Under the pieces are notes generated by a model. That model was not told where the DNA came from and did no database searches. It was given only the letters and a program-made list of their open reading frames with translations. This document shows positions 19,447 through 64,000 of a stretch of DNA of 64,000 nt, piece after piece. The translations under genes and the position numbers were made by a program. The stretch's first letter is position 1. Every line of letters starts with the position of its first letter. Where the stretch lies: sequence record PQ604604, one strand, 5' to 3'. The DNA is from Escherichia phage ECP_WGS_SA1.

Positions 19447-19447
19447 A

Positions 19448-19864: not shown

Positions 19865-19867
19865 ACT

Positions 19868-22048: not shown

Positions 22049-22052
22049 TCAT

Positions 22053-22925: not shown

Positions 22926-22927
22926 AT

Positions 22928-23449
22928 ATGAGAAAGAATAAAGTAATTGACTTGTTTGGCGTTACTTATGAAATTCATCAATTCAGCGCAATAGATGCAT
23001 TCGAAATGGTGGACGACATAAGCATATTAACTCCACTTGAATTATTGAGTGAATGTTATGTCATCAAATATGACGGGTCCAAAGTAAGGCTTAATTCTGA
23101 AAAAGTAATTAGTGAGGAAGTGAAAAGCATACCTAATCACTTGCCGCCTAATCTTGTGTTGAAAGTATTAATGGAAGCAGTTAAAAAGCACAACTTTGGA
23201 TTCCTTAGCGATTGGAAAGGCACCAAGATTCCAAATAGATTCTTGGCGGATGCACCGACAGTAGAGCCTAATTATCTTGAGCCAATGGTTGCAAGTCTAA
23301 TAAATAACGGCCTTGCCTCTTTAAAGGAGTTGGAAGAATACTATTCATTGCGTGATGCATTTGCCATGTTTGATGGTTTAATAGCAAAATCACTTAATGA
23401 AGCCTACTCAAACGAAGCTGCCATTAAAGAATCAAAGTCAAATCGCTAA
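22928..23449 (+). CDS. Hypothetical baseplate-module protein
   Basis: ORF. Confidence 0.45.
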   Translation: MRKNKVIDLFGVTYEIHQFSAIDAFEMVDDISILTPLELLSECYVIKYDGSKVRLNSEKVISEEVKSIPNHLPPNLVLKVLMEAVKKHNFGFLSDWKGTKIPNRFLADAPTVEPNYLEPMVASLINNGLASLKELEEYYSLRDAFAMFDGLIAKSLNEAYSNEAAIKESKSNR

Positions 23450-23509
23450 AATATTGCTTATAGACTCCTTATAGATTATAATTTGTTGATCATATATAAG
23501 GAGTCTATG

Positions 23510-25503: not shown

Positions 25504-25509
25504 GGAACT

Positions 25510-28248: not shown

Positions 28249-28258
28249 AGGAACGGCA

Positions 28259-30043
28259 ATGCCAACACTTATTAACAGACCTTTCGCGCAAAGCGGTGAT
28301 GTATCCGTGGTGCCGGATGCAAGCCCAAGCGGTTATGTAAACTTCCAGCGCGGCTACACCCCTGACTATGCGCTTGCTCTGGAGGCTGGAAACGTCGCCG
28401 CGAAAGCTGTTGAGCGCGAATCGATGAACTGGTTGCTGAATTTGATCACAGACAACCTTATGTTTATTCAAGATCATGGCGCTCAACAATATTTCTCTTC
28501 TGACTTGAAGCCGGATGGATACCCGAAAAATGCCATCGTTGTCAGCAACTCTGGAACGCCTTCAGCACCTGAGTGGCGCATCTTTCAGAGCGTGGTCGAC
28601 GGCAACACAAGCGCCGTACCAGCTAACGGAGAAACGGAATCTTGGCAGGAATTAACACTGCCCAGCGAAGCGCGAAAATACATTCCGATGCCTGCTGGCG
28701 GCGATGCGCAAAACCCGTACTTTGTTCGCGGATTGATTTCAAGTTTTGTGGACTTCGATAACATCACGACATCCACAACTATCGTCATTCAATCCGATGC
28801 CGTCGCCGCTCTGTGCTCTAACATCCCGAATGCGGTTGGCGCAACGAAGGTTGCAGGTCGACTGCAGGTCTGCGCTTGGCAGGTCGATGCGCAAACCTTT
28901 GCCTTGCAGCAATATACATCAATGAATGGCTATTTGTTTACTCGCTCTTATACTTCTGGTGCTTGGAGTGCTTGGATTCAAAATGCCACTGTTCAAGATG
29001 TGCAAATTGGAACGCCGAATCTTGCATCAGGTAAAGGCGCGCAAGATATAATTCTCACCGTTCCAGCAGGGTATTCATGGCCTCCGTCAGCAGGTAGTCG
29101 CCTGACAATCGTCAATGATGTAACGACTACCGGACCTGTCACCGTGACCATTGGTGTAAACAAAGTTGCCGTTCTTGGATTCGACGGCGGCGAGTTGCCA
29201 GCTGGCGCTATCGTAGGATTGCTGCCATTCACCATCATTTATGACGGAACTGTTTGGCGTCTCCTTCAGGCGTTTGGCGCGGCGCAAATCGGTGTTGATG
29301 CTACTGAGCCGCAACAGTTTGTTACNNNNNNNNNNNNNNNNNNNNNNGCTGCGAAGTTGATCACTATGGGTGATGTGTTCGAAGTCGGTGAGACTCGATT
29401 CCTGACAAACGGGACCAACCCAAATACCAAACTGGGTGCTTACGGTCAGGTATGGACGAGACTGCCTGATAACATGGTGATTCGCACGTCCGGCACGGCA
29501 CGAAACGGTCTTGCCACTGGCGGCGCGGACTCTGTTACTCTTACCGCCGCCATGCTTCCTCTCCACAATCACAGCGTGAACATTACCACGCGCCAGAGCG
29601 GACCATGGTCCAATACCACTGGAGATGCAGGCAATCACAACCACACAGGCGATACAAGCCAAAACGGCGCTCACGTACACGGTATGGATGCNNNNNNNNN
29701 NNNNNNNNNNNNNNNNNNNNNNNNNNNNNNNNNNNNNNNNNNNNNNNNNNNNNNNNNNNNNNNNNNNNNNNNNNNNNNNNNNNNNNNNNNNNNNNNNNNN
29801 NNNGATAACTACAAATACAACACTTCAACTAATGGCAACCACGTCCATAATATTCAATCTTCTGGATCACACACCCATGGTTTGAATATAAANNNNNCTG
29901 GCAATCACAGCCATGGCTATACCCTTCCCGCTCACACTCACGATGTGGTCGGGAATACTGGCGATGCAGGACAGTCGGTGCCAACGGCTGTTGCGACTTT
30001 GCCGCGATACGTTGTTTTGAATGGCTGGTACAGAAGCGCATAA
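28259..30043 (+). CDS. Tail fibre protein with His-x-His repeats
   Basis: AGAGGA RBS; C-terminal repeats GNHNHTGD, NGNHVHNIQSSGSHTHG, GNHSHGYTLPAHTHD like metal-binding fibre tips; three N-masked stretches inside. Confidence 0.65.
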   Translation: MPTLINRPFAQSGDVSVVPDASPSGYVNFQRGYTPDYALALEAGNVAAKAVERESMNWLLNLITDNLMFIQDHGAQQYFSSDLKPDGYPKNAIVVSNSGTPSAPEWRIFQSVVDGNTSAVPANGETESWQELTLPSEARKYIPMPAGGDAQNPYFVRGLISSFVDFDNITTSTTIVIQSDAVAALCSNIPNAVGATKVAGRLQVCAWQVDAQTFALQQYTSMNGYLFTRSYTSGAWSAWIQNATVQDVQIGTPNLASGKGAQDIILTVPAGYSWPPSAGSRLTIVNDVTTTGPVTVTIGVNKVAVLGFDGGELPAGAIVGLLPFTIIYDGTVWRLLQAFGAAQIGVDATEPQQFVXXXXXXXXAAKLITMGDVFEVGETRFLTNGTNPNTKLGAYGQVWTRLPDNMVIRTSGTARNGLATGGADSVTLTAAMLPLHNHSVNITTRQSGPWSNTTGDAGNHNHTGDTSQNGAHVHGMDXXXXXXXXXXXXXXXXXXXXXXXXXXXXXXXXXXXXXXDNYKYNTSTNGNHVHNIQSSGSHTHGLNIXXXGNHSHGYTLPAHTHDVVGNTGDAGQSVPTAVATLPRYVVLNGWYRSA

Positions 30044-40445: not shown

Positions 40446-40987
40446 TATTTACTCCAGATGTCATATACGCCAATTTGCTGGCAGACTTTGTGCAGTAATA
40501 TTACGTCGTCTAATGCACGGTGCTTCTGTTCATATTTTCCGAAATATAATTCATACAGCTCTTGAAGCTTAACTCTTCGGCCAAAAATAGGCAAGGTTTG
40601 CTCGACCGTACAAATGTTTATTTCTGGGAAATTAACATCATCAAGTGTAAGTCCTTCGCGCTGTAGTGCATAATCAAGAATGTTCTTATCGAACGCATGG
40701 TTGTGCGCGATAGTGGCACCAGTCTTCTTGAAGATTTCTTTTAGCTGCGGAACAAAATTGATGAATGGCGGATTGCACTCAAGGTCTTCATTTGTTAATC
40801 CGGTAATCTTTGTGATGATTTCTTCAATCACGATTTCAGGATTAATTATGAACTCGAACGTTTCAAGAATCTCTTTGCCGTCCGTCAACAGTCCTGCAAA
40901 TTCAATAGGGCGCGGCTGCATTCCAAGCGGCGCTTTCGGGTGCACGGTTAATCCGGTTGTTTCGAAGTCATAAGGGAGAAATAACAC
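40445..40987 (-). CDS. DnaQ-like 3'-5' exonuclease
   Basis: Exo I motif YDFETTGL near N-terminus; GTG start with GGAGG RBS; start overlaps polymerase stop region. Confidence 0.7.
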   Translation of the reverse strand: MLFLPYDFETTGLTVHPKAPLGMQPRPIEFAGLLTDGKEILETFEFIINPEIVIEEIITKITGLTNEDLECNPPFINFVPQLKEIFKKTGATIAHNHAFDKNILDYALQREGLTLDDVNFPEINICTVEQTLPIFGRRVKLQELYELYFGKYEQKHRALDDVILLHKVCQQIGVYDIWSK

Positions 40988-40999
40988 ATTGGCCTCCTA

Positions 41000-41026
41000 C
41001 AAAAAGGCCGCCCATTAGGACGGCCA
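41000..41026 (-). terminator. Intrinsic terminator (minus strand) after VOC-like gene
   Basis: GGCCGTCCTAATGGGCGGCC then TTTTT on minus strand. Confidence 0.5.
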
Positions 41027-41041
41027 CAGATTTAAGATTCG

Positions 41042-41593
41042 TTATACAGTGTACGGAGTACCGTCTTGATTCAACCGCACAATGAACTTAAGGTCGACAC
41101 CGATGATCTCACGCGTATCAAAGATAACATAGTTGTAACGACGCTGACCAGCAATATTTGGGTTGGTGTGAGAGTCGGTTACGACTTCCTGCGCAACCTG
41201 AATGCCTTCTTCTTTAAAGAACTTGCGCCATTCAGCAAGTTCAGCGGCAGTCACGTGCATGCCAAGATGGCTAACCTGATTGTCATGCGCATCGATGTAT
41301 TCGATGTTTTCGTGAATCCAGTTGCAACCTTTTGTATAGTCAAGAATTTCAAGCTCAAGAGGCTTACCAGCGCCGCCATCGGTGCCGTTGCCAGCCTGAT
41401 AGTTGAAGCGCAAGTCAGCTTCGTTGGTGCAATCGCCGCGCTGACCCTTAAAGACATCAGCTTCAAATACGCGACCAGTAGCAACAACGTGATCATGGAA
41501 CCATTCTGTCAGGCCGATTTTAGCCAGGAAATTCTGTGCGCGCTGAGCACCTGGAATTGACAGGGCGATTTGTTCAATTTTAAAATGTGGCAT
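41042..41593 (-). CDS. VOC/glyoxalase-like protein
   Basis: Beta-alpha-beta pattern HFKIEQIAL and SHLGMHVTAAELAEWRKFFKEEGIQV resembling VOC modules. Confidence 0.4.
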   Translation of the reverse strand: MPHFKIEQIALSIPGAQRAQNFLAKIGLTEWFHDHVVATGRVFEADVFKGQRGDCTNEADLRFNYQAGNGTDGGAGKPLELEILDYTKGCNWIHENIEYIDAHDNQVSHLGMHVTAAELAEWRKFFKEEGIQVAQEVVTDSHTNPNIAGQRRYNYVIFDTREIIGVDLKFIVRLNQDGTPYTV

Positions 41594-41683
41594 TTTGTTT
41601 CCTTAATTAAATATTATTGATTAATTACTGTGTTGCCTTCGNNNNNNNNNNNNNNNNNNNNNNNNNNNNNNNNNNNNNNTGAT

Positions 41684-42367
41684 TTATTTCCCAAATGGAA
41701 TATCAGTACCAGACATAAAGCGCCATGCGCCCGTAATTAAGATATGGCGAATGAAGTCAGCAATTACTTGCGGCTCAGTCTCCAATCCATTCATCAGCGC
41801 CTTTTTCTGGTATTCAGCAGCATACTCAGGAGTCCAGCCGCGAGTCGCGCAAACAGCATCTTCAATCTGTTTGGACATGCCAGTACCACGTAGCTTATTA
41901 GGACTAATAGAAAATACCGTGATCCCGTATTTAGGCGTAAGCTCGTGAGCCATCTGCTTGCTAATCATGAGCGCAGCAGCCTTGGAAGCATTATAACACA
42001 AGCTGGACGTCATAGGAATATGCGCAGCGTTGGAAACGATATTGATCACAAAACCTTTGTTGTCGATAAGACTTTTCAGCGCGGCTTGAGTCGTGTTGAC
42101 GAAAGAGAAGGCGTTGGTGTGCATAACGCGATTGAACTCTTCGTAGTTAACATCTTCAAACCAGTTGTTGGAGTTGACGCCAGCACAGTTGATCAAGCCT
42201 TCTACATCATATNNNNNNNNNNNNNNNNNNNNNNNNNNNNNNNNNNNNNNNNNNNNNNNNNNNNNNNNNNNNNNNNNNNNNNNNNNATGACCGTAAGCGC
42301 CAAGGGTGTCAAAAATAGATTTACCAAGACCGGAATTGGAACCTGTTACAACAATTACTTTTTTCAT
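41684..42367 (-). CDS. Short-chain dehydrogenase/reductase (SDR)
   Basis: TGSNSGLGK cofactor motif, NCAG, catalytic S...YNASK; one N-masked stretch. Confidence 0.7.
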   Translation of the reverse strand: MKKVIVVTGSNSGLGKSIFDTLGAYGHXXXXXXXXXXXXXXXXXXXXXXXXXYDVEGLINCAGVNSNNWFEDVNYEEFNRVMHTNAFSFVNTTQAALKSLIDNKGFVINIVSNAAHIPMTSSLCYNASKAAALMISKQMAHELTPKYGITVFSISPNKLRGTGMSKQIEDAVCATRGWTPEYAAEYQKKALMNGLETEPQVIADFIRHILITGAWRFMSGTDIPFGK

Positions 42368-42432
42368 TTATTTATCCTTTTTGGACTTCGTTTCGATGAG
42401 ATAAATATAACTCATCGAAACGCACAAGTAAA

Positions 42433-43305
42433 CTATTTATTGAAATTAATATTGTGGGTGTTGACGAGACGTTCACACATGGCGCTGTAAACACCATCGT
42501 CGTGTATAGAGTCTTCGTGCTTCAGGCCGCTGATTGCAAAGCGTGTAAGCTTGACAATCTTAAGCTCGAACAGATGCCACATGTGGTAGTCTTCCGGCGT
42601 TTTCAACGTTACGCCATTAGGGAAAAGCACCTGCATAACCTGGCCAACCATCACGGCATTATCGCCATAGACAGCGTTGCGCTCACGGAAGGTTGCTGCC
42701 ATTGCATCAAGAATATCGGCGGCAGTTGCCGGAGATTGTTCAACTTCCACAGCCTTAGTCTCTTCTTGCCCCGTTGCGCTTGGATCAATTGCTAATTGTT
42801 GCACCACTTCACCTGCCTTGCAAAGATTAAACGTAAAAGCGATTTTATTTTGCGCAACGGAATTATAATACAAGGCTTCATCTTGCATCCGCGCGAGTAC
42901 GTCTTGTCGGTCGTCGAATACATTGATGATTCTATAATCGCCGTGCCGCAATGCGTGCGATAGCCATGCAGATTTCATAATAGTTGATGGACGTTTGTCG
43001 CCATAGTCTCTCATCTTGATTGTAAATTCATCAAAAGGAAAAACATTGTCCAGACGTTCAAAAGTCACTTGTCTGTATTTTTCTGGCCTTGCAGTCCAAT
43101 ATTCAACCGCCTCACCGCGAAGAGATGCCGACTCTACTGCTGATGCAATGTGAGGATAGAACTGATCATAACCAATACCGCTGTGATAGTCATCATAGTC
43201 TGACAACGGACCTGCCACCTTGATGCGGTCTAAACGCCAACGGTCATCAAACAGCGTTCCGTCAAGGTCGAATACGTTTAAGATTTCGCTGTTTTTAATG
43301 CTCAT
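42433..43305 (-). CDS. HAD-family 5'-deoxynucleotidase-like domain fused to unknown C-terminal domain
   Basis: HAD motif I FDLDGTL and downstream FDDRQ; C-terminal 130 aa unassigned. Confidence 0.55.
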   Translation of the reverse strand: MSIKNSEILNVFDLDGTLFDDRWRLDRIKVAGPLSDYDDYHSGIGYDQFYPHIASAVESASLRGEAVEYWTARPEKYRQVTFERLDNVFPFDEFTIKMRDYGDKRPSTIMKSAWLSHALRHGDYRIINVFDDRQDVLARMQDEALYYNSVAQNKIAFTFNLCKAGEVVQQLAIDPSATGQEETKAVEVEQSPATAADILDAMAATFRERNAVYGDNAVMVGQVMQVLFPNGVTLKTPEDYHMWHLFELKIVKLTRFAISGLKHEDSIHDDGVYSAMCERLVNTHNINFNK

Positions 43306-44105
43306 CCTTTTGATACTCCATCTTTAGCAACTGGATTGTTGGTGATTGGCATCGCATTCCAAAACTGGATGCGCAACTCTTCTTGCTGTGCCGTGGTATC
43401 CATCCAATCACGATACCACGGGCAATGGGCTTTACCGTGACGAGGAAACGCGCACTTACCCATACCGATGCATTGCGGCTGCAGTAATGGATTCGCCCAC
43501 GGGTGCACCTTGAGGACTTCCGCAACCATTGCGCGGAACACTTCTTGATACTCTCCTTGTGTGCGCGTGCACAAGCGGTTGGAAGCCATCTGTTGCAGCG
43601 TGCGCAAGTTGAACTTTGCCATGATATGCGTTTGCATATTAGAAGGCAACACGGCACGTGCATCTTGAATCTCTGCGCCAGCCGCGCGAAGCTCTTGATA
43701 CAAAGCATCGATAGTCGCCATCGCATCGTCCCANNNNNNNNNNNNNNNNNNNNNNNNNNNNNNNNNNNNNNNNNNNNNNNNNNNNNNNNNNNNNNNNNNN
43801 NNNNNNNNNNNNGGACGAATCGCATCAAACGCAGATGATTCCTGAGCGCGGCTTGTGCGTTCTTGATATGCGCCTGTGCGTGTGCGTACCATCTGATGCG
43901 TCATGTTCTTTGATACATCTGTGATGTCAAATATATAGTCCACAAAGTCAAAAGGCGACTTGATTGTATCAAGCATGTAGCGCCAATGCTCTTGCTTCTC
44001 TGATTCCGTCATCTCAGAGACAGGCTTACCAGTCATGCGCGTGTTCTTTGTTTCCAGCAAAAGGTCAAGTGCATCTTGGGTGTATCGAATTAATTCAACT
44101 TTCAT
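43302..44105 (-). CDS. thyX: Flavin-dependent thymidylate synthase (ThyX) family protein, divergent signature
   Basis: Aligns by eye to ThyX core but the RHR-x7-S-x-RY signature reads RTR...TSRA; Cys-rich C-terminal extension; one N-masked stretch. Confidence 0.6.
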   Translation of the reverse strand: MKVELIRYTQDALDLLLETKNTRMTGKPVSEMTESEKQEHWRYMLDTIKSPFDFVDYIFDITDVSKNMTHQMVRTRTGAYQERTSRAQESSAFDAIRXXXXXXXXXXXXXXXXXXXXXXXXXXXWDDAMATIDALYQELRAAGAEIQDARAVLPSNMQTHIMAKFNLRTLQQMASNRLCTRTQGEYQEVFRAMVAEVLKVHPWANPLLQPQCIGMGKCAFPRHGKAHCPWYRDWMDTTAQQEELRIQFWNAMPITNNPVAKDGVSKG

Positions 44106-44118
44106 TTTAATTATCCTA

Positions 44119-44565
44119 TTAACGGTAATTCACTAGTTGCTGATCACCAGAGAAGGTGCAATGATAAACGAATTGTGCGTTATAAAGCAACTGAAAACTT
44201 TTCTTTGGTTCATTATTAGAACTCATTGATGTAAAGATTTCTGCACCAGAACGGTTTTCACCAATCAGATTGATAAAGCCGCCAGTTGAACGAGGCTGGA
44301 CGAAAGTGAAACGTTGCACCCACGGAGTACGGTTGGCACCTTTCCCTGTGAATCCCTGAATCTGAATATTCAGACCTTCTTGCTCGTTAACACCGATGTA
44401 AGTGGTAATCTTTGCACCAGTCGTTGCTGCGGTCTTACCGTCCATCGCTTCGCAATCGTAAACAGCGATTGAATCGGAAGTACGGATGGCAGCTTCAGTC
44501 GCTTCCATATACATGGTGCCGAGAATAGCAGTCGCGGCAAGAGCGATTCCAGTGATTCGTTTCAT
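44119..44565 (-). CDS. Secreted protein of unknown function
   Basis: Signal-peptide-like N-terminus MKRITGIALAATAILGTMYMEA. Confidence 0.45.
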   Translation of the reverse strand: MKRITGIALAATAILGTMYMEATEAAIRTSDSIAVYDCEAMDGKTAATTGAKITTYIGVNEQEGLNIQIQGFTGKGANRTPWVQRFTFVQPRSTGGFINLIGENRSGAEIFTSMSSNNEPKKSFQLLYNAQFVYHCTFSGDQQLVNYR

Positions 44566-44630
44566 TTTCGTTTCCTCTATGAGTTCTGCTTCAATGATTA
44601 AAGTATACGCCCATTGAAGAAGAAAGCAAA

Positions 44631-45626
44631 TTATTTATTAGCAATATAAGCAAATTTTTGATAGTTATTTGCTTTGATGAGTTTTTCAACTTCAACAAGG
44701 TCATGAGCGACGTCATCAAGCAAAATGTTGCGCCAGGTAGCAAATCGACCGACACTGAACACGTTCAAATCCATAGTCAGCTGCAGGAGTAGGGCGTGTC
44801 GCAAGTCTTTCGGAATGTCGACAATCTTGCCATATTTCTGGTCGACCTTTTCAACTTCTTCAAGAGCGATGTCACTCCATGAAAGGCCAAATGCAGTCAA
44901 CACTTCGTCGACTTCTGCGCGAAGCTTCATGTCACGGTAACGAGTGATGCCGCCGGCAGCTTCAACTGCAGCTTCACTTACGCTGACTAAAGGAATTGTT
45001 TCAATGATAAGCGTGTCACCAGTAATTGATGCGCGGTAAGTTCTGACGGAGTAGTCAGGGAAGTAAATTGTCTGATACAAATCACACTTACGTTTAATCT
45101 TAAAGCGGTAAACGCGAATGTTTGCTTTATCAAATGAGAAATCAAGCTTTTGATCAATCCCAGCCAGCTTCATCATGACTGGCAGCGGCGACGTATTGAT
45201 GATTGGTGTCTCGCTATAGCCACAAAGAGTATCAACCGGAGTATTAAAGAATATGCGGTCACCCAGTTTGTCGACAAGCTGATCATAAAAGTCATCAGGC
45301 GCAATATAACGCGTTGCAGCCTTAAGCTTCATGATTGAACGGCTACCAAACTGATTGGTGACCTTCATGGAATACATATTGGCAAGGTTAATTGGGCAAT
45401 GGTCGTGGTAGTAGTTGCCGCGAAAATACACAGCCTTGTCAACTGTCACGGCCTTAAAGGGGATTCCGGTAATACGGCTTACTTCTTCGCCACGGAAGCG
45501 TAGCAACGCCTTGTGCTGTTGCACCCGTTCCCCTGCTTCGTACACAATAGAGTTCGGGAAGTGACACGCTGTGATAAGTCCTGCTAATCCGCCGCCGATA
45601 ATCATTACAGGTTGTTTCATGTTCAT
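44631..45626 (-). CDS. FAD/NAD(P)-binding oxidoreductase
   Basis: N-terminal dinucleotide-binding motif VMIIGGGLAGL; C-terminal FxxGRxAxW motif like amine-oxidase/UGM-type flavoenzymes. Confidence 0.6.
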   Translation of the reverse strand: MNMKQPVMIIGGGLAGLITACHFPNSIVYEAGERVQQHKALLRFRGEEVSRITGIPFKAVTVDKAVYFRGNYYHDHCPINLANMYSMKVTNQFGSRSIMKLKAATRYIAPDDFYDQLVDKLGDRIFFNTPVDTLCGYSETPIINTSPLPVMMKLAGIDQKLDFSFDKANIRVYRFKIKRKCDLYQTIYFPDYSVRTYRASITGDTLIIETIPLVSVSEAAVEAAGGITRYRDMKLRAEVDEVLTAFGLSWSDIALEEVEKVDQKYGKIVDIPKDLRHALLLQLTMDLNVFSVGRFATWRNILLDDVAHDLVEVEKLIKANNYQKFAYIANK

Positions 45627-48269: not shown

Positions 48270-48372
48270 TTCAGGCGACCTTTGTTAGTGCGGAAATATT
48301 TTCTGATAGTATAATTGCAGATATAGTATAAAGCAAAGTAAATCGAAATTGTGAACTAAATGGTAAATATTG

Positions 48373-48400
48373 TTGACTTTGTATCACTCAATATTATACT
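48373..48400 (+). promoter_or_regulatory. Sigma70-like promoter upstream of primase operon
   Basis: TTGACT - 16 nt - TATACT in divergent intergenic region. Confidence 0.55.
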
Positions 48401-48429
48401 GCAGGTATTGATCACCGAAGGAAAGAAAG

Positions 48430-49512
48430 ATGGCTAGTTTAAGAGAAGAAGCAAAAATAATCGAAGAGTTTTTGACGGAACTCCAAAGAGGCATTCCAGA
48501 AGATGAACGCGTCATGACCGTGTTTGCGCCTGAAGCAACGGTGCAGACCGACGAGCGCGGCAAAAAGATTAACAGCAGCTTCTGGCCTAAGCCTTGGAAG
48601 CTTGGCAAGCCGCTGATGCAACATCAGAACGGTTACGCCTGCATAAGTTCAATGCGTAAGTCTCCCAACCCAAAGACAGGCGAGATGCGATACTGGCGCA
48701 CGGAATCGGCCTTTGGTCATGGCATGGCGATGATGGTCGACGACATCGGTCACGGTAAAGGGTCTAAAGGCGATTTAGATTTGGAGTTCTTTTTCGAGCG
48801 TCTGAAGCCAACCGTCATCATTGAGACTTCGCCGAACAACCACCAGCTGTGGTATTTCTTTAAAGAACCAATTGACCATCTTATTCAGTTCAAAGCATTC
48901 CTTGGGTCTTTCGTAAACATGGTACTCAAGAAGGGCGGCGACAATACGATTAAAGACGTGACGCGCGTGGGCCGTGTTCCTGGGTGCATCAATAACAAGC
49001 GTGTGACTCACGACGGCCCTTATAAATATGTCGATGAGAACGGCGACCCGTTCCGCTGCCGACTTGTCCATGCAGACTATTCTTTGCGCTACACAATCGA
49101 AGAGATTTGCCAAGCCTTCGGTTTCCACGTCGTTATGCCGCAAAAGCGTGAAATTCAAATCGACGTTGACGAATACAAATATGACGCTGTTTGGTATAAG
49201 ATAGCCCAGCAAATCCTTGCGCGCAATAAGATGGGCGAAGGGTCCGACGGCGATGTTGTTGAAAATATGTCAGGTAAATGCCGCATCATCTGTCCTTGGG
49301 GTGAAGAGCACACCAACGGCGACCCATACGGCGCTTATTTTCGCGGCCCCATCCCTGGCGCTGAACATGAATTCGTTTTCGGTTGCGCTCACGACTGTCA
49401 CCGGAAAGGGGAAGGCAAGAAAGGATGGACCGCTTTTGTTGAAGCAGTAGTCATGCCTTATATTGAGAATCAACTTGATATGATAAATCGTCGCGCAGGT
49501 GGCATAAAATAG
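48430..49512 (+). CDS. DNA primase (primase-polymerase-like with zinc-binding region)
   Basis: VIIETSPNNHQLWYFF resembles prim-pol motif; Cys/His cluster CPWGEEH...CAHDCH; downstream P-loop helicase. Confidence 0.55.
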   Translation: MASLREEAKIIEEFLTELQRGIPEDERVMTVFAPEATVQTDERGKKINSSFWPKPWKLGKPLMQHQNGYACISSMRKSPNPKTGEMRYWRTESAFGHGMAMMVDDIGHGKGSKGDLDLEFFFERLKPTVIIETSPNNHQLWYFFKEPIDHLIQFKAFLGSFVNMVLKKGGDNTIKDVTRVGRVPGCINNKRVTHDGPYKYVDENGDPFRCRLVHADYSLRYTIEEICQAFGFHVVMPQKREIQIDVDEYKYDAVWYKIAQQILARNKMGEGSDGDVVENMSGKCRIICPWGEEHTNGDPYGAYFRGPIPGAEHEFVFGCAHDCHRKGEGKKGWTAFVEAVVMPYIENQLDMINRRAGGIK

Positions 49513-49718
49513 TTTGCTTTTATTTTTCTAGCAACTATAATCATTTTATGAACTGAAGCAGAGGTGATTTATGCAAAGCGAAGAATTGAACATCGAGCTT
49601 GAAGGTTTGTTAAATTCGTTAGAACCTAAGCCCGTAGAGCTTCCCACCCTTGAAGGTGTCATGGCTCACCACCAATCGGCTGCGGCCAAACACTACTCTG
49701 AATTTGTTAAGGGATAAA

Positions 49719-50009
49719 ATGAACGAACCAAAAATGATGACCACTGAAGAAGCACAAAAACTTCGCGTGGAGAACGAGCTTAAGCTTGTCAATGAAATTC
49801 TTCCTCTGTTTAAAGGCTATGCGGTTGAAGAAGTCGTTGGCGCAATCCTTAATGTGTCGACGCACGTAGCGATGAATCTGAATGCAGAGCGTTTCAATAC
49901 TTTGCTGACGATCAACAAATTTACTGTCAGTGCAACATTCACCGTTGAGCCAGTAAATTTTGAAGAAGCTGCAGCCGCAATTCAACAACAGCGAGATCAA
50001 GAGGTGTAG
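49719..50009 (+). CDS. Hypothetical protein
   Basis: AAGGG RBS. Confidence 0.4.
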   Translation: MNEPKMMTTEEAQKLRVENELKLVNEILPLFKGYAVEEVVGAILNVSTHVAMNLNAERFNTLLTINKFTVSATFTVEPVNFEEAAAAIQQQRDQEV

Positions 50010-50010
50010 C

Positions 50011-50274
50011 ATGGGCGCTTTCCGCAACGAGTTTATTTGGAACGTCACAAGCAGTCTTTCGACTTGTCCTAACTGTGCGAGCGATGTGATCAAGGTGCGG
50101 CAACATCGCAATGCAGAGGAAGGTGCCTGGGAGGACGGCGACCTTGTAGAGTGCCAGTGCTGCTCTCACGAAGGCGTGGTGGAGCTTTACGCAGGAGAAG
50201 GTTGTCCACCAGCAGAACGTTCAGCACGCGTTGAATGGGATGCGACAGACTACATCGGTGATCCTCAACAGTAA
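50011..50274 (+). CDS. Zinc-ribbon protein
   Basis: CPNC...CQCC motif pair; AGAGGTG RBS. Confidence 0.4.
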   Translation: MGAFRNEFIWNVTSSLSTCPNCASDVIKVRQHRNAEEGAWEDGDLVECQCCSHEGVVELYAGEGCPPAERSARVEWDATDYIGDPQQ

Positions 50275-50393
50275 ATTTAGGTATAGATACATATGAAAGC
50301 CGTAAAGAAATACACATTAATCATTTCCCTTGTAATCATCCTGGGGCTATTATATGTATTGGATATGACATATTATTTGGCAGGGGTGAGTAA

Positions 50394-50684
50394 ATGAATA
50401 TTGTAATTCTTTATGGTGAGAATATCAGCGATGACGACATCGAAGTTGCCGTTGATGTTTACGGTATCGATGAGGTGAAACGTGTTGAAGAAATTAATGG
50501 CTCAAATCTTAATGAGATTGCCAAAGAAGCTGGTTGCCCTTCGGAAGAGATTCTGGTGGTTACTAACGATGACCTGTCTTCTATGGATTGTTTGCGCCGC
50601 ATCTTCACCGATTGCCAATACCTTCATTCTGTTCAGTCAGTAAACAAATTGAGAAAGGCATACGCTGACCAATTTCCTTGCTGA
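50394..50684 (+). CDS. Hypothetical acidic protein
   Basis: GGGGTGAG RBS. Confidence 0.45.
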   Translation: MNIVILYGENISDDDIEVAVDVYGIDEVKRVEEINGSNLNEIAKEAGCPSEEILVVTNDDLSSMDCLRRIFTDCQYLHSVQSVNKLRKAYADQFPC

Positions 50685-50734
50685 TAGTTCACCAGTTATA
50701 TTGCTTTAAACTGAGTTTTACTATATTAATATAC

Positions 50735-50760
50735 AACGCCAGATTTCTGGCGTTTATTTA
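50735..50760 (+). terminator. Intrinsic terminator
   Basis: AACGCCAGATTTCTGGCGTT then TATTTA. Confidence 0.5.
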
Positions 50761-50820
50761 CCGCACCCTGAAAGGATATATCCATGCAACAATATAACAA
50801 AGCCGTATCAGGAGGATTAA

Positions 50821-52491
50821 ATGTCAATTGAACATGACAATCTTCCAGAGGATACAGGTGATGAATTTGGTGCAATCTTTGACGAAATTCAAGACGCTGG
50901 TGTTTCAGAAGAAATGCAAGCGGCAGAGCAGCAAGGCACCAGAGCTAAAATCAGCCTACAGCACAAGGCTGTTGAGAAAGATGCAGAGCGCATGGAATGC
51001 TACGGTGAAGAAGACTTGGTTGAAAGAGCACGTTTGCTCGCCTCACTTCAGGTAATCAAGTTCCCTCATTATAAACCGACGAAAGATGATTTTGTTCTTC
51101 AGGCGGACCGGACGAGTGACATGAACCGTTATGCGGTTTTCGACGCGTTGTTTGATAAGGGAAGCGGCGTTGTTCCATTCCCTCACAAAGATACTTTTCG
51201 TGGGCGCTTAGTCGACCATCGCGGCGAAACATTCACCGACCGGACGTTGGAAGTCACAGAGATAGTTGCCGCTGTCGACGCAGCAGGACTGTCCAACCCA
51301 AATTCACGTCAGGTCGCTCAATCCTATAAGGAATGGGCCATGCGTTATCAGCGCGATGACCTGATGGACTTCTTCTACAAGAAGCTGCCTGAATGGGACG
51401 GTACTGCGCGCATTGAGAAATACCTTATCGAGCTATTCCGACCGTTCGATACAGAGTTAAACCGACAAATCGGTGTGTATTTTTGGCTATCGCTCTATAA
51501 CCGCCTGACCAACCCTGGCTGTCAAGCGCCAATCTCCATTGCGCTCATCGGCGGCCAGAACGCAGGGAAGAGTTATTTTAGTAAGCTGCTTTGCGAAGCT
51601 ATTATGAACGACCGCCACGCAACACCGATTCCGTTGAACTTGGCCGCGCAGAACTTCAACCCGTTCTTGCGAGCTATTACGGGTCGCTCAATTATCGCGA
51701 ACGTTGGCGAGATGACAGGCTTTAAAAAGGCCGACATCGAAAACATGAAAGCATTCCTGACTAAGACGGAAGATGACCTGGACTTCAAATTTGAAGACAC
51801 GCAGGTTAAACCACGCCAGTGGATTGCGATCATGGACGGCAACGAATACGCAGGCATGCAGCGTGACGATACGGGCAACCGTCGTGTGTATCCTATCTTT
51901 GTTGGCCAACTCGCCGACAAGGACGGGCAACCGAACTGGTCGAAAGACTTCCAAGCTGACCTTTCCACTTTGAAAGAAGATGTTTGGCAGTTGATGGCTG
52001 AGTGCGCTGCGTGGATGGAGAAGCACGGCGAAGCAGGTTACAATGCCTTTGTTGGTGAAACATCTCGTATGCTTACTGAGTTCAGTAAGAACGAAATGGA
52101 ACGCGCTCGCGGCGTTATCCGTGATGAGATGGTCGACAACGACCTTGTTGAAGTCATCATTACCGCGCCTTATGACCGACATCACAGCGGACGCTGGCAC
52201 ATCACCAGTGGTGCAATCGCTATGGGATTCAGAGCTAAGTGCGGCAAGTCGCCTTTCTCACGTACCCTTGCGCCGCACATGTCGAAGCTTGGATTTGAGC
52301 CTGCAACCTATCGCAACCAGCGTGGCTACTTTACGCCGCTGATTAAGAATGAAGCAGGGGAATACATTTCTGACTTGATGACTATCTTAGCGTATCTTAT
52401 CCGCGACGAGTCTGACCCTGAAGATATTGAATTCTTGAAGAAGGTTATTGAACGCAAACGTTCTTTAGGAAGAGATAAGGATGAATTCTGA
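50821..52491 (+). CDS. Primase-associated P-loop helicase (D5/P4/VirE-like)
   Basis: Walker A IGGQNAGKSY, Walker B-like region; CAGGAGGA RBS. Confidence 0.65.
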   Translation: MSIEHDNLPEDTGDEFGAIFDEIQDAGVSEEMQAAEQQGTRAKISLQHKAVEKDAERMECYGEEDLVERARLLASLQVIKFPHYKPTKDDFVLQADRTSDMNRYAVFDALFDKGSGVVPFPHKDTFRGRLVDHRGETFTDRTLEVTEIVAAVDAAGLSNPNSRQVAQSYKEWAMRYQRDDLMDFFYKKLPEWDGTARIEKYLIELFRPFDTELNRQIGVYFWLSLYNRLTNPGCQAPISIALIGGQNAGKSYFSKLLCEAIMNDRHATPIPLNLAAQNFNPFLRAITGRSIIANVGEMTGFKKADIENMKAFLTKTEDDLDFKFEDTQVKPRQWIAIMDGNEYAGMQRDDTGNRRVYPIFVGQLADKDGQPNWSKDFQADLSTLKEDVWQLMAECAAWMEKHGEAGYNAFVGETSRMLTEFSKNEMERARGVIRDEMVDNDLVEVIITAPYDRHHSGRWHITSGAIAMGFRAKCGKSPFSRTLAPHMSKLGFEPATYRNQRGYFTPLIKNEAGEYISDLMTILAYLIRDESDPEDIEFLKKVIERKRSLGRDKDEF

Positions 52492-53138
52492 TGAATAAAG
52501 CAATCAACATCGCTAAATTCTTTCAAAATCTCGGTGAACTGAACAAAGAGAGTGACGTTCACGGAGAAGAAATGAACCGGATGATTTCAACCGTGTTGCG
52601 TGGTTTTGGGTACGATAAGGACTCCATCACCTGTAAACGCACGAAGCTTGTCGATGAGACATACCTTTACTACGTTGAATTGCGCGTAGGCAAAGATTTG
52701 ATGATCATCGACCCTAAATTGGAAGGGGCGCATTGTTTTGGCGCTCACCCTCGTGCAAGTGAATTCAAGGGGCGCGGTCGCAACCGACTCCAGAAGCTTG
52801 ATGATGCAGGCGACCTGAACATCTCAATGTTCCTCAAAGAGTTCCTTGCGCTGCCGAAGGTCGCATCTTCAACGGGTCGTGATGACCTGTGCAAGATTGG
52901 ATTCAGAACTAAAGATTTGCGCAATGCGCTACGCAAGAAGGGATTTGTGCCTTCTTATGATAACGTCGCCGCGCTGATGGCTTCCATGGAGGAAGCTGAA
53001 GCAATGGATAAGGTGCGCGGATATTTCCTGAATACAGGCTACACAATGTATGAGTGGCACAACAAAGGATTGACGGTCGCCGACTTCATCTATTCATTAG
53101 AGCAGAAGTATGTACGCAATATGCAGGCCACAGGATAA
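52491..53138 (+). CDS. Hypothetical protein
   Basis: ORF 215 aa, coupled to helicase. Confidence 0.5.
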   Translation: MNKAINIAKFFQNLGELNKESDVHGEEMNRMISTVLRGFGYDKDSITCKRTKLVDETYLYYVELRVGKDLMIIDPKLEGAHCFGAHPRASEFKGRGRNRLQKLDDAGDLNISMFLKEFLALPKVASSTGRDDLCKIGFRTKDLRNALRKKGFVPSYDNVAALMASMEEAEAMDKVRGYFLNTGYTMYEWHNKGLTVADFIYSLEQKYVRNMQATG

Positions 53139-60224: not shown

Positions 60225-60432
60225 TACATCTTACGGATGATACGGATGATACGCGTCGCCGCTATACTTTATACAACTTTGAAAAAAACAATTAACTCCA
60301 TTTTGAATTAATTTAAATTAATTTTTTTCTACATCCTCATACTTATACTAAACTTGTGTTTATACGTATTATCCGTAAGATATAAGTAAAAACAAAGACT
60401 TGCGGCAATACGGATGATACGTCATGATACGC
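60225..60432. repeat. Second iteron-like repeat island (same unit)
   Basis: About 50 bp near-identical to 8809-8860, plus extra copies at 60364 and 60408 flanking an AT-rich stretch. Confidence 0.6.
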
Positions 60433-60578
60433 TTCAACCAGCCAGCAGCGGCTAAGTCATTGATTTGCATAACAAGCGGCGAAAGGGATTGATTTCTTTT
60501 ATACGTATCAAACAGTACACCACGCATCACGGTCCGCTATTCATTTAGCACTATGATTTATGTACGTTTACAGCCAAT

Positions 60579-60607
60579 TTGAACATCAATCTGCACTTGA
60601 ATATAAT
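60579..60607 (+). promoter_or_regulatory. Sigma70-like promoter upstream of 60660 gene
   Basis: TTGAAC - 17 nt - TATAAT; ATTTGCACTAT motif copies lie in the leader. Confidence 0.5.
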
Positions 60608-60659
60608 GTTCATTCATTGTATAATTCACACTATTAATTTGCACTATGGGATTTGCACT

Positions 60660-61133
60660 ATGAGTCAAGATTATGTAGCAATGCCTGAAGACTTTGAAGA
60701 CCCGCGATTTGCAGAGCATAATCAGGCATTATTCGATGAGTTCATTGACCTTGTTATTCAGGGCCATGACATGCGCGCAGCTTTTGCACTAGTATTTGGC
60801 ATGGAGGTTGCGACCGATAACTACACTGGCCAGCGAATCCTGTGCACTCAGCGCAATCCGTACTACAAGATGCGCTACAAAAAGCGCATGGAAGAGATGC
60901 CATTGAAGGAGTTGTGGAGTGTAAAGAGTTCCATCCACAATTTAGTGAAGCTTGTGCGTGATCCAGAAGTCGCGGCTTCAGCCAAGCTTAATGCCATTCG
61001 TGAACTGAATATCATCTACGGCATCACGATGATTGATGAAAATGGCAATAGTAAAATGGGCCGTTCCATGGACGATTTCTACAAGGATTTTGGAGAGGCA
61101 GCCAAAGAGGGTGAGCAATTCTCCCGCCACTAG
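60660..61133 (+). CDS. DNA-binding protein, terminase small subunit-like candidate
   Basis: Segment MRAAFALVFGMEVATDNYTGQRILCTQRNP resembles the HTH region of small terminase families; consensus promoter upstream. Confidence 0.4.
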   Translation: MSQDYVAMPEDFEDPRFAEHNQALFDEFIDLVIQGHDMRAAFALVFGMEVATDNYTGQRILCTQRNPYYKMRYKKRMEEMPLKELWSVKSSIHNLVKLVRDPEVAASAKLNAIRELNIIYGITMIDENGNSKMGRSMDDFYKDFGEAAKEGEQFSRH

Positions 61134-61561
61134 CCAATTTGCACTATAAAACGGCCCTAGAACACATTTTCTCCACTTCTAGGGCCGTTGGTAATACGAC
61201 GGGGAAGGCTGCAACCATAAACGCGTTATAAAGTGTATTATTATAAGTCATCTTTTAGTCGCTTTACGTAACAATTTACGACCTTCCGCCGTCCAGTCGA
61301 ACGACTCCACCAGCAGATTTGCACTATAACCTAAGACGATGCGCCCCTTCTCGTTATCGACCCGCCAACAAGTCTCGAATAGCATTCGATTTGCACTATT
61401 AACTATCGCCGCAACGCGCGTTGGGTAAGCGCAATTTGCACTATGGTCGTAAAGGGATAAGGTGCGACCACTGCCGATGGACAACGTAGCGATGAGAATA
61501 AGCGTATTCATAAGCCACCAATTTGCACTATGAAAAGCGACCCCGAAGGGCCGCCATTCGA

Positions 61562-62188
61562 TTAGATAATCTGGAAGGTGTAGGACTTGTTGCCGAACTC
61601 GAAGTTCAAGCGCCCGGCTTCCTTAAGCTTCATGCGGAAGCGAATGTGTTTGCTATCCGGTAAGCCCAGCGCGGCGAACGCTACGCGGACCGATTTGAAC
61701 TCGCCTACACCCTCGACCATAACGGCGTTACGGGTGAGACGCTTTTGTGCCACTTCCTTGTTATCCCAACTTTTTGCAATACCTTCGCTATTAGAACGGC
61801 GATGGGAAGGAGTTCCATTTTGCACTACGCAATTTGCACTATCGTTTAGGCCGCTCTTAACGAAGGCTTCATACTCTTCGTCGGTCATCGCGTCGAGTTC
61901 TTCCTGAGTCGGCTCGGCCTTTTTAACGACCGCACGCGCCTTATGCGTTTTTACATCGCTGGACACTTCCTCGCGCGGCTTCGCGTCGGGGATGGGCAAT
62001 TCGTTGGACGGCTCATCGAGCGCGTTTAAGGACTCGATTAACGCGATGACGCGAGTCTCAGCGGTGCGACGGTCCACAAACTTCTTAATCGGTTTTGAGC
62101 CGGAGTTGGCATTATAGAATGCAACGAGGTCGGCGGTCTTAGTTGCGATAACGTCGCCGCTAGTAGAAAAGCGATTTAAGCTAACCAT
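61562..62188 (-). CDS. Hypothetical protein (early island)
   Basis: AGGAG RBS; atypical CpG-rich codon usage. Confidence 0.5.
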   Translation of the reverse strand: MVSLNRFSTSGDVIATKTADLVAFYNANSGSKPIKKFVDRRTAETRVIALIESLNALDEPSNELPIPDAKPREEVSSDVKTHKARAVVKKAEPTQEELDAMTDEEYEAFVKSGLNDSANCVVQNGTPSHRRSNSEGIAKSWDNKEVAQKRLTRNAVMVEGVGEFKSVRVAFAALGLPDSKHIRFRMKLKEAGRLNFEFGNKSYTFQII

Positions 62189-62268
62189 AATAAACTCCTA
62201 TTTGTTAGGGCGCTAGGCGCGAAAGAATTTTATTAAAGCGCCGCGCACGACGCTCTAAAAATCCTCTC

Positions 62269-62583
62269 TTACTCTTCGTCGTCTTCGATTAATTCGAAGG
62301 CGAAGGCATAAGCTTTGCTATCGTAATTAACTAAAACGGCGAGTTCGAACTCGTTAATAAACGCCGTTTTACCGCATAAATTTAATTCCGCATCGACTTC
62401 GAAGAATCCGTTTTCGTCGCGCTCTAAGCGAGAAGCAGCGAGTTGCTCGATTACCGTCGCGTCGTTAATTTCTTCGCCTAAGCGAACGCCGGAGAATTTC
62501 GCGAGAATTTCGCCGTAAGTAAGCGTAACACCCTGGACTTCGGCGGTTGCGTTTTCGAGGGTGAAGCGGGTAACGATAGCCAT
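62269..62583 (-). CDS. Small strongly acidic protein (paralog family, early island)
   Basis: AGGAG RBS; about 104 aa, strong net negative charge, C-terminal DSKAYAFAFELIEDDEE. Confidence 0.5.
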   Translation of the reverse strand: MAIVTRFTLENATAEVQGVTLTYGEILAKFSGVRLGEEINDATVIEQLAASRLERDENGFFEVDAELNLCGKTAFINEFELAVLVNYDSKAYAFAFELIEDDEE

Positions 62584-62651
62584 AATAAGCTCCTAGTTGG
62601 GAGAGGCGTTAACGACCTATTCGTTAACTCATCCCGTCCCGATATGAGTAC

Positions 62652-62679
62652 ATTATAATATAGTGTAGAAAAAAGTAAA
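62652..62679 (-). promoter_or_regulatory. Early promoter copy (minus strand)
   Basis: Minus strand reads AGTGCTTTACT - 16 nt - TATAAT. Confidence 0.55.
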
Positions 62680-62713
62680 GCACTTTTTCGATAAAAATGC
62701 GATAAATTATTTT

Positions 62714-62741
62714 ATCTTTTTTCTTTACTTCTTCGTACACT
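62714..62741 (+). promoter_or_regulatory. Early promoter copy (plus strand)
   Basis: CTTTACTTCTTCGTACAC...TATACT, then GC hairpin and RBS. Confidence 0.5.
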
Positions 62742-62807
62742 CGCGTATACTTGTTTATATCGAGACGGGCGATGGCCCTTTCTTCTACTAGCATCGGGAG
62801 CTTTATT

Positions 62808-63110
62808 ATGACTACTTTAATCTCTTCCATCCTTACTTACGACGAAGACCGCTTAACCGTTCGCTCTCTTATCGCCGCCGTTAACGCGGAACTAGAATCT
62901 AGCGCCATCAAGGTCCGTGCCGTTGCCTTCGTCGGCCTTTCCTTCGACGATATTAAGTATGCAGAGTATAGCGCCATTCGCGTTGTTACTACCGACGATA
63001 ACGCCGTTACCCTTATCGAGACGGTTACGCCGCGCGGCGAAGCGTTAATTATCGTCGAGTATATCGACGTAGAAGGCGATAAAGCTTATAAATATTTTAT
63101 CGCAGAATAA
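62808..63110 (+). CDS. Small acidic protein (paralog family, early island)
   Basis: GGGAG RBS; C-terminal GDKAYKYFIAE similar to 62269..62583. Confidence 0.5.
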   Translation: MTTLISSILTYDEDRLTVRSLIAAVNAELESSAIKVRAVAFVGLSFDDIKYAEYSAIRVVTTDDNAVTLIETVTPRGEALIIVEYIDVEGDKAYKYFIAE

Positions 63111-63120
63111 CGAAAAGTGC

Positions 63121-63149
63121 TTTACTTCTTCGTACACTAAGACTATAAT
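63121..63149 (+). promoter_or_regulatory. Early promoter copy (plus strand)
   Basis: AGTGCTTTACT - 17 nt - TATAAT; near-identical to 62714 copy. Confidence 0.55.
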
Positions 63150-63216
63150 GTTTTATATCGAGAGGGGATGAGGTAGCGAATAGGTCGCTACCCTCCCGAC
63201 TAACTAGGAGAATATT

Positions 63217-63507
63217 ATGATTACTTTATCCGCTATCCGCTCCGCTCGCGTCGAAACTTCCGAAAACTCTAACGTATTTGGCGAAANNNNNNNNNNNNNN
63301 NNNNNNNNNNNNNNNNNNNNNNNNNNNNNNNNNNNNNNNNNNNNNNNNNNNNNNNNNNNNNNNNNNNNNNNNNNNNNNNNNNNNNNNNNNNNNNNNNNNN
63401 NNNNNNNNNNNNNNNNNNNNNNNNNNNNNNNNNNNNNNNNNNNNNNNNNNNNNNNNNNNNNNNNNNNNNNNNNNNNNNNNNNNNNNTTTAAAATCGTCTC
63501 CTTATAA
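63217..63507 (+). CDS. Small protein (mostly N-masked)
   Basis: AGGAG RBS, N-terminus MITLSAIRSARVE resembles 62808 gene; body masked. Confidence 0.35.
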   Translation: MITLSAIRSARVETSENSNVFGEXXXXXXXXXXXXXXXXXXXXXXXXXXXXXXXXXXXXXXXXXXXXXXXXXXXXXXXXXXXXXXXXXXXFKIVSL

Positions 63508-63539
63508 TACCCTTCCGTTACTAATAGGCCGCGCTTAGT

Positions 63540-64000
63540 CGCGGCTTTTCTTCGTCCCTATCTCGATGCGCTTCTCCGCGAAAACTCCTTTATCCTTCCC
63601 TTCGTCGTCGCATAATCTTCGTCGAGATGCGCCTTAGTTCGCATAACAGGTATTACGTTAAATGGAGAACATCGCGTAAGTCCTTGTTTTATATAGACAC
63701 CTATATCGGACCGTTAGGGAGGGTCGCGCAAGTCGTTGTTTTATAAAGGCGCAAAACTTTCCCTTCGTTCCGAACTAAAACGAGAAATATGCCGACCCTT
63801 CGCCCGAAAATAGTACGCATGCGAAATTACATGTATCTAGAATAATCCCCACCGATATTATCCTACACGCAATCATTAGCTTTCGAATCATTATGCTTCA
63901 TACTATTATGCGTCGAATCATTCGCTTTCGAATTGTAACGCTGAAAACTGTAACGGCGATTGATTATTGCGTTCGTGTGGTTTTTATGGCATGGGTCTTT
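63540..64000. repeat. Repeat-dense non-coding region at window edge
   Basis: No ORF of 60 aa or more in any frame; short direct-repeat families (TCGCGYAAGTCSTTGTTTTATA x2, GAATCATTNGCTTTCGAAT x2, CCCTTCG x4, TGTAACG x2). Confidence 0.5.

Follow-up and report, generated by a model that had tools for sequence, protein, structure and literature searches.

The question raised by the right-hand part of the 64,000 nt-long stretch of Escherichia phage ECP_WGS_SA1 analysed here (sequence record PQ604604; henceforth, the window) is why its composition departs, from about position 61200 onwards, from that of all the DNA preceding it. The original prediction, made from the letters alone, had described this part as an early island, rich in CpG and poor in CAG/CTG, in which divergent promoters drive paralogous small acidic proteins, and had proposed for it either a foreign origin or a different selection, possibly restriction-site avoidance. 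We found that the primary signal, which had been missed, is wider than CAG/CTG: it is the CA/TG dinucleotide class as a whole that has been lost. Two further points had been missed: the region belongs to a direct terminal repeat (DTR) abutting the physical end of the genome, and the CpG excess is a by-product. We give an even chance to the explanation that the island is a pre-early leader, similar to the first-step-transfer (FST) region of phage T5, under position-dependent selection for target-poor DNA.

The depletion begins gradually at ~61200, is at its maximum between 62100 and 63750 and stops at ~63940. We considered as the island the region 61200-63940 (not assigned to a strand), depleted in CA/TG and free of GATC, with a transition zone (61200-62100) and a core (62100-63750). 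In 1-kb windows the observed/expected ratio (o/e) between 62001 and 64000 was 2.06-2.09 for CpG, 0.39-0.44 for TG/CA and 0.14-0.19 for CAG/CTG, vs ~1.1, ~1.2 and ~1.2, respectively, in the other 60 kb of the window; CA/TG o/e was 1.19 +/- 0.08 outside the island and 0.2-0.4 in it, where CAG/CTG fell to 0.0-0.1, CpG was ~2.1 and TpA 1.2. With respect to 254 one-kb windows of the complete relative Mansfield, the island had z-scores of -11.8 for TG/CA, +8.4 for CpG and +6.2 for TpA. These sliding-window statistics bear out the shift predicted from ~61.2 kb.

Just three of the ten strand-symmetric dinucleotide classes were altered: CA/TG decreased from 1.17 to 0.34, while CG and TA increased from 1.10 to 2.09 and from 0.66 to 1.23, respectively. 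CA and TG were equally reduced on the coding strands of genes of both orientations. The depletion was present in all three codon phases and was greatest at the 3-1 junction between codons, where we counted 6 CA and 11 TG vs 30.5 and 38.6 expected, and 81 CG and 47 TA vs 50 and 23.5 expected. Since CG and TA rise at this same junction, CA/TG is what is removed, and the excess of CpG and TpA is the passive leftover of synonymous exchanges between C and T where codons adjoin. Non-coding DNA of the island was depleted as well (CA/TG o/e 0.43), and the purge reaches the proteins: the five amino acids that cannot be encoded without CA or TG (Trp, Gln, His, Met and Cys) occurred at one third to one fifth of their frequency in other genes. 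The predicted avoidance of CTG by leucine was confirmed, with 3 of 50 leucine codons being CTG in the island vs 162 of 665 in the reference genes (7 of 50 vs 313 of 665 for CTG and TTG together). All eight trinucleotides containing CA or TG were depleted; in the island of Serratia phage MyoSmar their values ranged from 0.16 to 0.37.

The Dam site GATC was absent from the islands of three lineages, in which 28.4 occurrences were expected from the dinucleotide content (11.4, 8.5 and 8.5; the three islands are window 61200-63940, positions 6800-9200 of the relative L028 and positions 1500-3500 of Pantoea phage Kyle, L030), and was only moderately depleted in the island flanks. Palindromes of 6 bp containing neither CA nor TG were at 0.55-0.62 of expectation in the island vs 0.69 in the rest of the genome. 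Several specific explanations of the composition were considered and rejected. Avoidance of a CRISPR protospacer adjacent motif was ruled out, AAG/CTT being enriched at 1.44, and so was avoidance of spurious promoters, as TA-rich words resembling a -10 element were enriched. Explanations based on primase (CTG) or on MazF (ACA) were ruled out because every CA/TG context was depleted on both strands. We did not adopt the view that CA/TG was lost because its removal costs least, since by our reasoning AG/CT would cost fewer amino acids. No description of such a composition was found in the literature searched for Wifcevirus, MyoSmar, Kylevirus and related names, and a distance-graded dinucleotide purge was not found in the literature that we searched.

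From its alignments, the window covers the right-most 64 kb of the genome of a Wifcevirus, that is, of a WFH-like E. coli myovirus. The island region is 99.5% identical to that of Escherichia phage vB_EcoM_WFH (WFH), and all the 28 matching records are Wifcevirus myoviruses from E. coli or Shigella. Positions 1-3701 and 67583-71283 of WFH are 100% identical, giving terminal repeats of 3,701 bp, and the alignment of the window tail with the right end of WFH is gapless; hence, the DTR copy on the right corresponds to window positions 60300-64000 (not assigned to a strand), the last of which coincides with the physical right end of the genome record. In Mansfield the DTR, mapped by PhageTerm, is annotated at 1-3673, and Korf et al. 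2019 gave ~3.7 kb for the Wifcevirus repeat. A window coordinate is obtained by adding 60299 to the coordinate in the left copy of WFH. Window positions 63287-63486 were masked, and the data for gene g6 and the fine-scale statistics were taken from WFH.

The island lies inside this 3,701-bp repeat, a trait of T5-type pre-early regions. Proceeding inward from the right end, ~60 bp of normal composition are followed by ~400 bp of purged non-coding DNA, by g6 and g5 (read outward), by divergent promoters, by g4, g3 and g2 (read inward, with a progressively weaker purge) and finally by terS, whose composition is normal. The non-coding terminal tail as a whole occupies 63548-64000 (not assigned to a strand) and is CA/TG-poor up to ~63940; the normal composition of the last ~60 bp is presumably due to a constraint from end formation.

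The composition is maintained among relatives. Nine Wifceviruses, ~10% divergent in the island, all had TG/CA values of 0.28-0.42. In the core, changes creating CA/TG occurred at 0.56 (transitions) and 0.34 (transversions) of the opportunity, and changes destroying it at 3.2 and 2.6 times the opportunity, respectively; in the flanks every substitution class was near 1. As creating changes are deficient and destroying changes in excess, the signature is at equilibrium under a continuing force. The relative L028 (~70% nucleotide identity) has retained the island despite a different gene content, and islands were found also in Kyle (Kylevirus), MyoSmar and Erwinia phage TropicalSun (Myosmarvirus), so that the signature occurs in three genera, infecting four host genera, and always beside a physical genome end. 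In MyoSmar it lies ~200-2000 bp from this end and consists of a single inward-reading operon, with a promoter at 255, g3, two acidic proteins (isoelectric point (pI) 4.33 and 4.05) and a terminator. No island was present in Pseudomonas phage PB1 or in six metagenomic relatives carrying g3.

The gene g3 is present in phages with and without the island, and its composition depends on its position. TG/CA o/e of its orthologues was lowest in Myosmarvirus (0.22-0.24, at a distance of 0.35-0.85 kb from the physical end), intermediate in L028, Kyle and WFH (0.40-0.66, at 1.5-2.4 kb) and highest in the relatives without island (0.85-1.22). Hence, composition tracks the distance from the DNA end rather than gene ancestry. 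A foreign island would have a composition that follows ancestry and decays; we found neither, and no net gain of CA/TG.

Three promoters, recovered by an independent scan for sigma70-like sequences, serve the island, in agreement with the divergent arrangement of near-identical promoters first described. P(g4) (62652-62679, minus strand) has the structure GTGCTTTACT-16-TATAAT, with TTTACT as -35 element, and reads leftward through g4, g3 and g2; P(g5) (62724-62751, plus strand) has the structure TTTACT-16-TATACT; P(g6) (63121-63149, plus strand) has the structure GTGCTTTACT-17-TATAAT, again with TTTACT at -35. Two of the promoters have AAAAGTGCTTTACT in common, and the third shares with the second 19 identical bases, CTTTACTTCTTCGTACACT. 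The -35 element TTTACT itself is devoid of TG and CA, and promoters of the type GCTTTACT-N16/17-TATAAT are found again in Kylevirus and Myosmarvirus. In WFH (L002) we observed a fourth such promoter (GCCTTTACT..TATACT) at 5625-5660 on the minus strand, beyond the window, in the unique region that adjoins the left repeat; since it sits outside the island, this promoter class is not exclusive to purged DNA.

As regards the hairpin that had been predicted after each promoter, it stands for g4 and g6 and fails for g5. The 5' untranslated region (UTR) of g4 (62584-62645, minus strand) contains an 8-bp hairpin with loop AUAGG and an AGGAG ribosome-binding site, and the hairpin in the 5' UTR of g6 (63156-63216, plus strand; inverted repeat I1) is an inverted copy of it. 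The two have the same loop and an 8-bp stem with two compensated pairs, with free energies of -17.1 (g4) and -21.3 kcal/mol (g6, z = -2.6), whereas the g5 hairpin is weak, no better than shuffled sequence (z = -0.4). In Wifcevirus, Kylevirus and Myosmarvirus (L028:8332; L030:2468; L032:255), the conserved promoter is followed by a hairpin with GAAUAG or GAAUAA in its loop, and this recurrent UTR hairpin is a possible binding or processing element. No Rfam family matched the repeat at E <= 1. A further RNA hairpin with a long stem, between g4 and g3 (62189-62268, minus strand; -31.6 kcal/mol, z = -3.9), could act in RNA processing or as a partial terminator, and an intrinsic terminator follows g6 (63526-63547, plus strand).

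Five genes lie in the island. On the minus strand are g2 (61248-61511; 87 amino acids, basic with pI 9.7, hydrophobic N-terminus), g3 (61562-62188; 208 amino acids, phrog_4730, conserved across PB1-like phages) and g4 (62269-62583; 104 amino acids, pI 4.07, charge -15.5, predicted alpha/beta fold); on the plus strand are g5 (62808-63110; 100 amino acids, pI 4.39, charge -8.5) and g6 (63217-63507; 96 amino acids, pI 4.40, charge -10.4). Scans of g2-g6 against Pfam, PHROG and NCBIfam returned only phrog_4730, an uncharacterised family, for g3. The gene g3 is an ancestral one in the whole PB1-like group. Its residues 12-80 (KTADLVAFYN..KKFxDRxTAExR) marginally matched the RNA-polymerase-binding N-terminal domain of NusA in a PDB sequence search (E = 0.006-0.015, a weak match), and this N-terminal module occurs fused to other C-terminal domains in other phages.

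The g4 locus is hypervariable, with two alleles, of 104 and 94 amino acids, that are 26% identical (L001:1971-2255, L007). In ECML-117 and vB_Eco4M-7 g4 is deleted, and its promoter and UTR there serve g3 without an intervening gene. Such replacement and loss fit counter-defence genes, for which this turnover is typical. Among 1.84 billion representative proteins, g4 had one real distant homologue (P0143); two matches to repeat proteins were judged spurious. There was no Pfam match at E <= 1, the Ocr and ArdA families included; g4 had no PDB sequence match at E <= 10, and its predicted fold has no solved structural relative. Occurrence of g5 is restricted to Wifcevirus, and its AlphaFold model was too poor for use (predicted local distance difference test score 47).

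The acidity originally described for the small proteins holds for all three of them, and early expression, the other trait of DNA mimics, is suggested by the promoters. Their supposed paralogy, instead, did not survive comparison: mutual similarity of g4, g5 and g6 reached BLASTP E >= 0.2 and profile-profile (hhalign) probabilities of 0.3-0.5%, and the C-terminal KAY motif that two of them seemed to share is out of register between the proteins and is not conserved among g4 orthologues.

The restriction phenotype of these phages gives a possible reason for the purge. Wifceviruses resist every restriction system tested except EcoP1_I, and the BASEL study found in them no known protection mechanism (PMC11990801). 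Our counts for Bas98 match the published ones (EcoKI 5, EcoCFT_I 4, EcoRI 36 in both orientations, EcoRV 6, EcoP1_I 82), the whole genome containing 5 EcoKI, 4 EcoAI-type, 18 EcoRI, 3 EcoRV, 93 CACAG and 82 AGACC sites. For the type III system EcoCFT_II, whose recognition sequence is not stated in the BASEL text, the published counts are 93 (Bas98) and 115 (Bas97), and CACAG is the sole 5-mer fitting both, from which we infer that it is the recognition sequence. The phage resists EcoRI despite its 18 sites.

None of the EcoKI, EcoAI-type, EcoRI and EcoRV sites falls in the island. CACAG is absent from it in eight of the nine genomes and occurs once in Bas98 (3.7 expected), while two to five AGACC sites, in both orientations, are present in the island of every genome; EcoP1_I is the only tested system with inverted sites inside the island. 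The pattern of sites in the island matches the phenotype for six of the six published systems, of which only CACAG and AGACC are statistically informative. A different selection, possibly avoiding restriction sites, was thus the better of the two options first proposed, given the absent GATC, the rarer palindromes and the presence of inverted island sites only for the system that restricts.

The anatomy of the island, its composition, and the maintenance and position dependence of this composition are direct observations. They are consistent with the following pre-early leader mechanism. The island would be the first DNA to enter the cell, from the physical end in the terminal repeat, and unmodified host sigma70 RNA polymerase would transcribe it from the three GCTTTACT..TATAAT promoters. 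The products, g3 and the three small acidic proteins, would disarm the defences of the host or bring it under phage control, acting before most of the genome becomes exposed. Until these proteins are made the island DNA would be unprotected, and selection would favour the fewest recognition words for nucleases or methylases, stripping GATC, CCWGG and CAG-type words and finally nearly the whole CA/TG class. It is because nothing would protect the leader before its own proteins exist that it would be under such strong, position-dependent selection. The depletion acts at the DNA level, being strand-symmetric, present in all codon phases and in non-coding DNA, and paid for in amino acids, which speaks for the leader. 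The island is probably, in short, a hard-to-recognise, first-entering leader that shields the rest of the genome from host nucleases.

Known phages offer partial parallels. The FST region of T5 and the island both lie in a long DTR and both contain pre-early genes, mostly of unknown function, driven by host promoters. In T5-like phages, type I, II and III systems are resisted as long as no site falls in the FST region (PMC10644984), and the published Wifcevirus data follow the same pattern for sites outside this region. T5, however, injects its DNA in two steps with a stop signal, whereas here only the adjacency to the end and the gradient with distance were seen; its FST region measures 10 kb and encodes A1, A2 and Dmp, whereas the island, in a PB1-like myovirus, measures 2-2.8 kb and has no homologue of these proteins in Pfam, PHROG and NCBIfam. 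As for T7, its leading end (promoters A1-A3 and gene 0.3, encoding Ocr) and the island both have strong host promoters within ~1 kb of the end and a very acidic first protein, and in both inward transcription could assist genome entry. There is no sequence or fold similarity between g4 and Ocr, and Ocr does not account for EcoRI resistance. Avoidance of restriction sites and of GATC, as in enterobacterial phages, is genome-wide here too (GATC 0.43, 6-bp palindromes 0.69) and is stronger in the island; classical avoidance, however, removes specific words from the whole genome, whereas the island has lost a whole dinucleotide class over ~2-3 kb at the end, at a cost in five amino acids.

Several points weigh against the leader as just described. 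Entry order, early expression, anti-defence activity and the role of defence as selective agent are all steps that we infer, and the correlation with restriction comes from six systems, two of them informative. The equal depletion of all the eight CA/TG trinucleotides is atypical of recognition-site avoidance, and TCGA and some other palindromes are enriched in the island; restriction avoidance as a depletion of specific words thus agrees with GATC (0 vs 28) and the palindromes and not with these two facts. We found no reason for the choice of CA/TG rather than of another dinucleotide, AG/CT being cheaper in amino acids. In T5, CpG o/e is 1.31 in positions 1-10219 vs 0.79 in 10220-30000, with the change at the repeat boundary, a shift of which we found no mention in the literature searched; it has the same direction as that of the island, but it is milder and has no CA/TG purge (TG/CA 0.94). 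The T7 leader, unlike the island, has a normal dinucleotide composition. T5-like phages resist EcoP1I even with sites in the FST region (PMC10644984), whereas Wifceviruses are sensitive. Lastly, the confident model of g4 has a fold unlike Ocr, ArdA and any other solved DNA mimic or anti-CRISPR.

As the purge is uniform across sequence contexts, a reader intrinsic to the phage or a physical constraint is still viable. In the former, unlikely case, an early phage nuclease or DNA modifier would act at short CA/TG contexts, and the leader would have lost them so as to escape cutting, or to stay free of modification and legible to host RNA polymerase. Depletion at the level of dinucleotides in phages of four host genera fits such a reader better than it fits the variable restriction repertoires of hosts, and EcoRI is resisted in spite of its sites. 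The genome, moreover, encodes ThyX, a HAD/PNK-like phosphatase, an SDR protein, a glyoxalase-like protein, a UDP-galactopyranose-mutase-like flavoprotein and MazG; the metabolism cluster lies at window ~40900-45600 (Mansfield 48355-53083), and mazG is outside it, beside the ligase gene (Mansfield 39954-40547). Together, the cluster and MazG could form a candidate pathway for nucleotide or DNA modification, relevant to EcoRI resistance. But the island holds no recognisable nuclease or DNA-modification gene (Pfam, PHROG, NCBIfam), BASEL found no known protection mechanism (PMC11990801), PB1 relatives possess much of the cluster and no island, and a modification at CA/TG would leave GAATTC and GATATC unprotected. 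A physical requirement of the last-packaged and first-ejected 2-3 kb, for which the flexible CA/TG step would be unfavourable during packaging termination, storage near the portal or ejection, is improbable in our opinion. It would explain why the island always adjoins the physical end and weakens with distance, and the total of pyrimidine-purine steps is unchanged (~0.24 vs 0.25), only their kind being different; yet the very last 60-200 bp are undepleted, mechanics can hardly account for the avoidance of GATC and for the cost in amino acids, and the other terminal-repeat phages examined (T5, T7) have no CA/TG purge. We know of no motor or portal that reads sequence in this way.

Quite improbable is a mutational bias specific to the ends, for example from single-strand exposure or repair during repeat annealing, converting CA/TG to CG and TA without selection. 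The effect does depend on position, and the substitution spectrum alone cannot tell biased mutation from selection; but this bias would need both CA->CG and CA->TA, with opposite effects on GC content, at one dinucleotide only, and cytosine deamination, the known single-strand damage, would make TG/CA instead of removing it. In addition, terS, part of the same repeat, is normal, and the surviving CA/TG sit in functional elements (ATG codons, promoter cores, ATTTGCACTAT repeats). The foreign origin originally proposed, with the composition of a donor, appears highly improbable: the abrupt boundary, the orphan proteins and the variable gene content could be read in this way, but the signature does not decay although the opportunity to create CA/TG is five times that to destroy it, the ancestral g3 is compositionally normal in distant orthologues and follows its position, and the same signature is common to non-coding DNA and to the different gene sets of three genera. 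To our knowledge, no genome combines CpG near 2 with CA/TG near 0.3. Finally, selection on RNA or codons, for instance to evade an mRNA interferase like MazF or to tune the translation of early genes, has next to no probability. ACA is depleted to 0.28 and a special codon usage is frequent in early genes; however, CA and TG are equally low on coding strands of both orientations, non-coding DNA is depleted too and the effect is strongest at codon junctions, and the strand symmetry effectively refutes this explanation.

With respect to the remaining features of the repeat, the small terminase subunit gene terS (60660-61133, plus strand; TG/CA o/e 1.4) lies inside the DTR, is annotated in Mansfield with an HHpred note and matches phrog_4783, with a further weak match to a terS PHROG. 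A cluster of ATTTGCACTAT copies, eight exact and one degenerate, occupies 60637-61842 on the plus strand, with exact copies starting at 60637, 60651, 61137, 61317, 61389, 61434, 61521 and 61832 and the degenerate one at 61819. No other exact copy exists in the 64 kb, none of 100 shuffles reached eight, and the copies were also detected as the repeat families D1-D5. They extend from just upstream of terS, where they overlap its ATG, through g2 and g3 in antisense; in the transition zone they hold most of the surviving CA/TG. L028 has five plus-strand copies at the equivalent place. These copies may be candidate binding sites of the terminase (pac-type) or of a regulator.

The conserved, distance-graded purge may point to a so far unrecognised reader of very short specificity that inspects incoming DNA and to a staged entry, and the acidic proteins would then be the effectors of the broad restriction resistance; we regard this combination as a whole as rather doubtful. 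Such a reader may belong to the host, as a sensor or nuclease directed at the DNA that enters first, or to the phage, as an early nuclease or modifier, and genome entry in this contractile-tailed phage may proceed in stages, as in T5 or T7.

Wifceviruses are candidates for the therapy and biocontrol of E. coli O157, and their resistance to nearly all restriction and defence systems tested (BASEL) gains here a testable address: a leader of 2.8 kb, comprising three promoters and a set of four or five small genes. If the explanation is true, restriction sites put into the leader would sensitise the phage, and removal of AGACC from it would abolish restriction by EcoP1_I. The distance-graded purge could serve, in other phages, as a sequence-only marker of the DNA that enters first, and the island offers a route to new anti-defence proteins or to a new DNA-reading activity.

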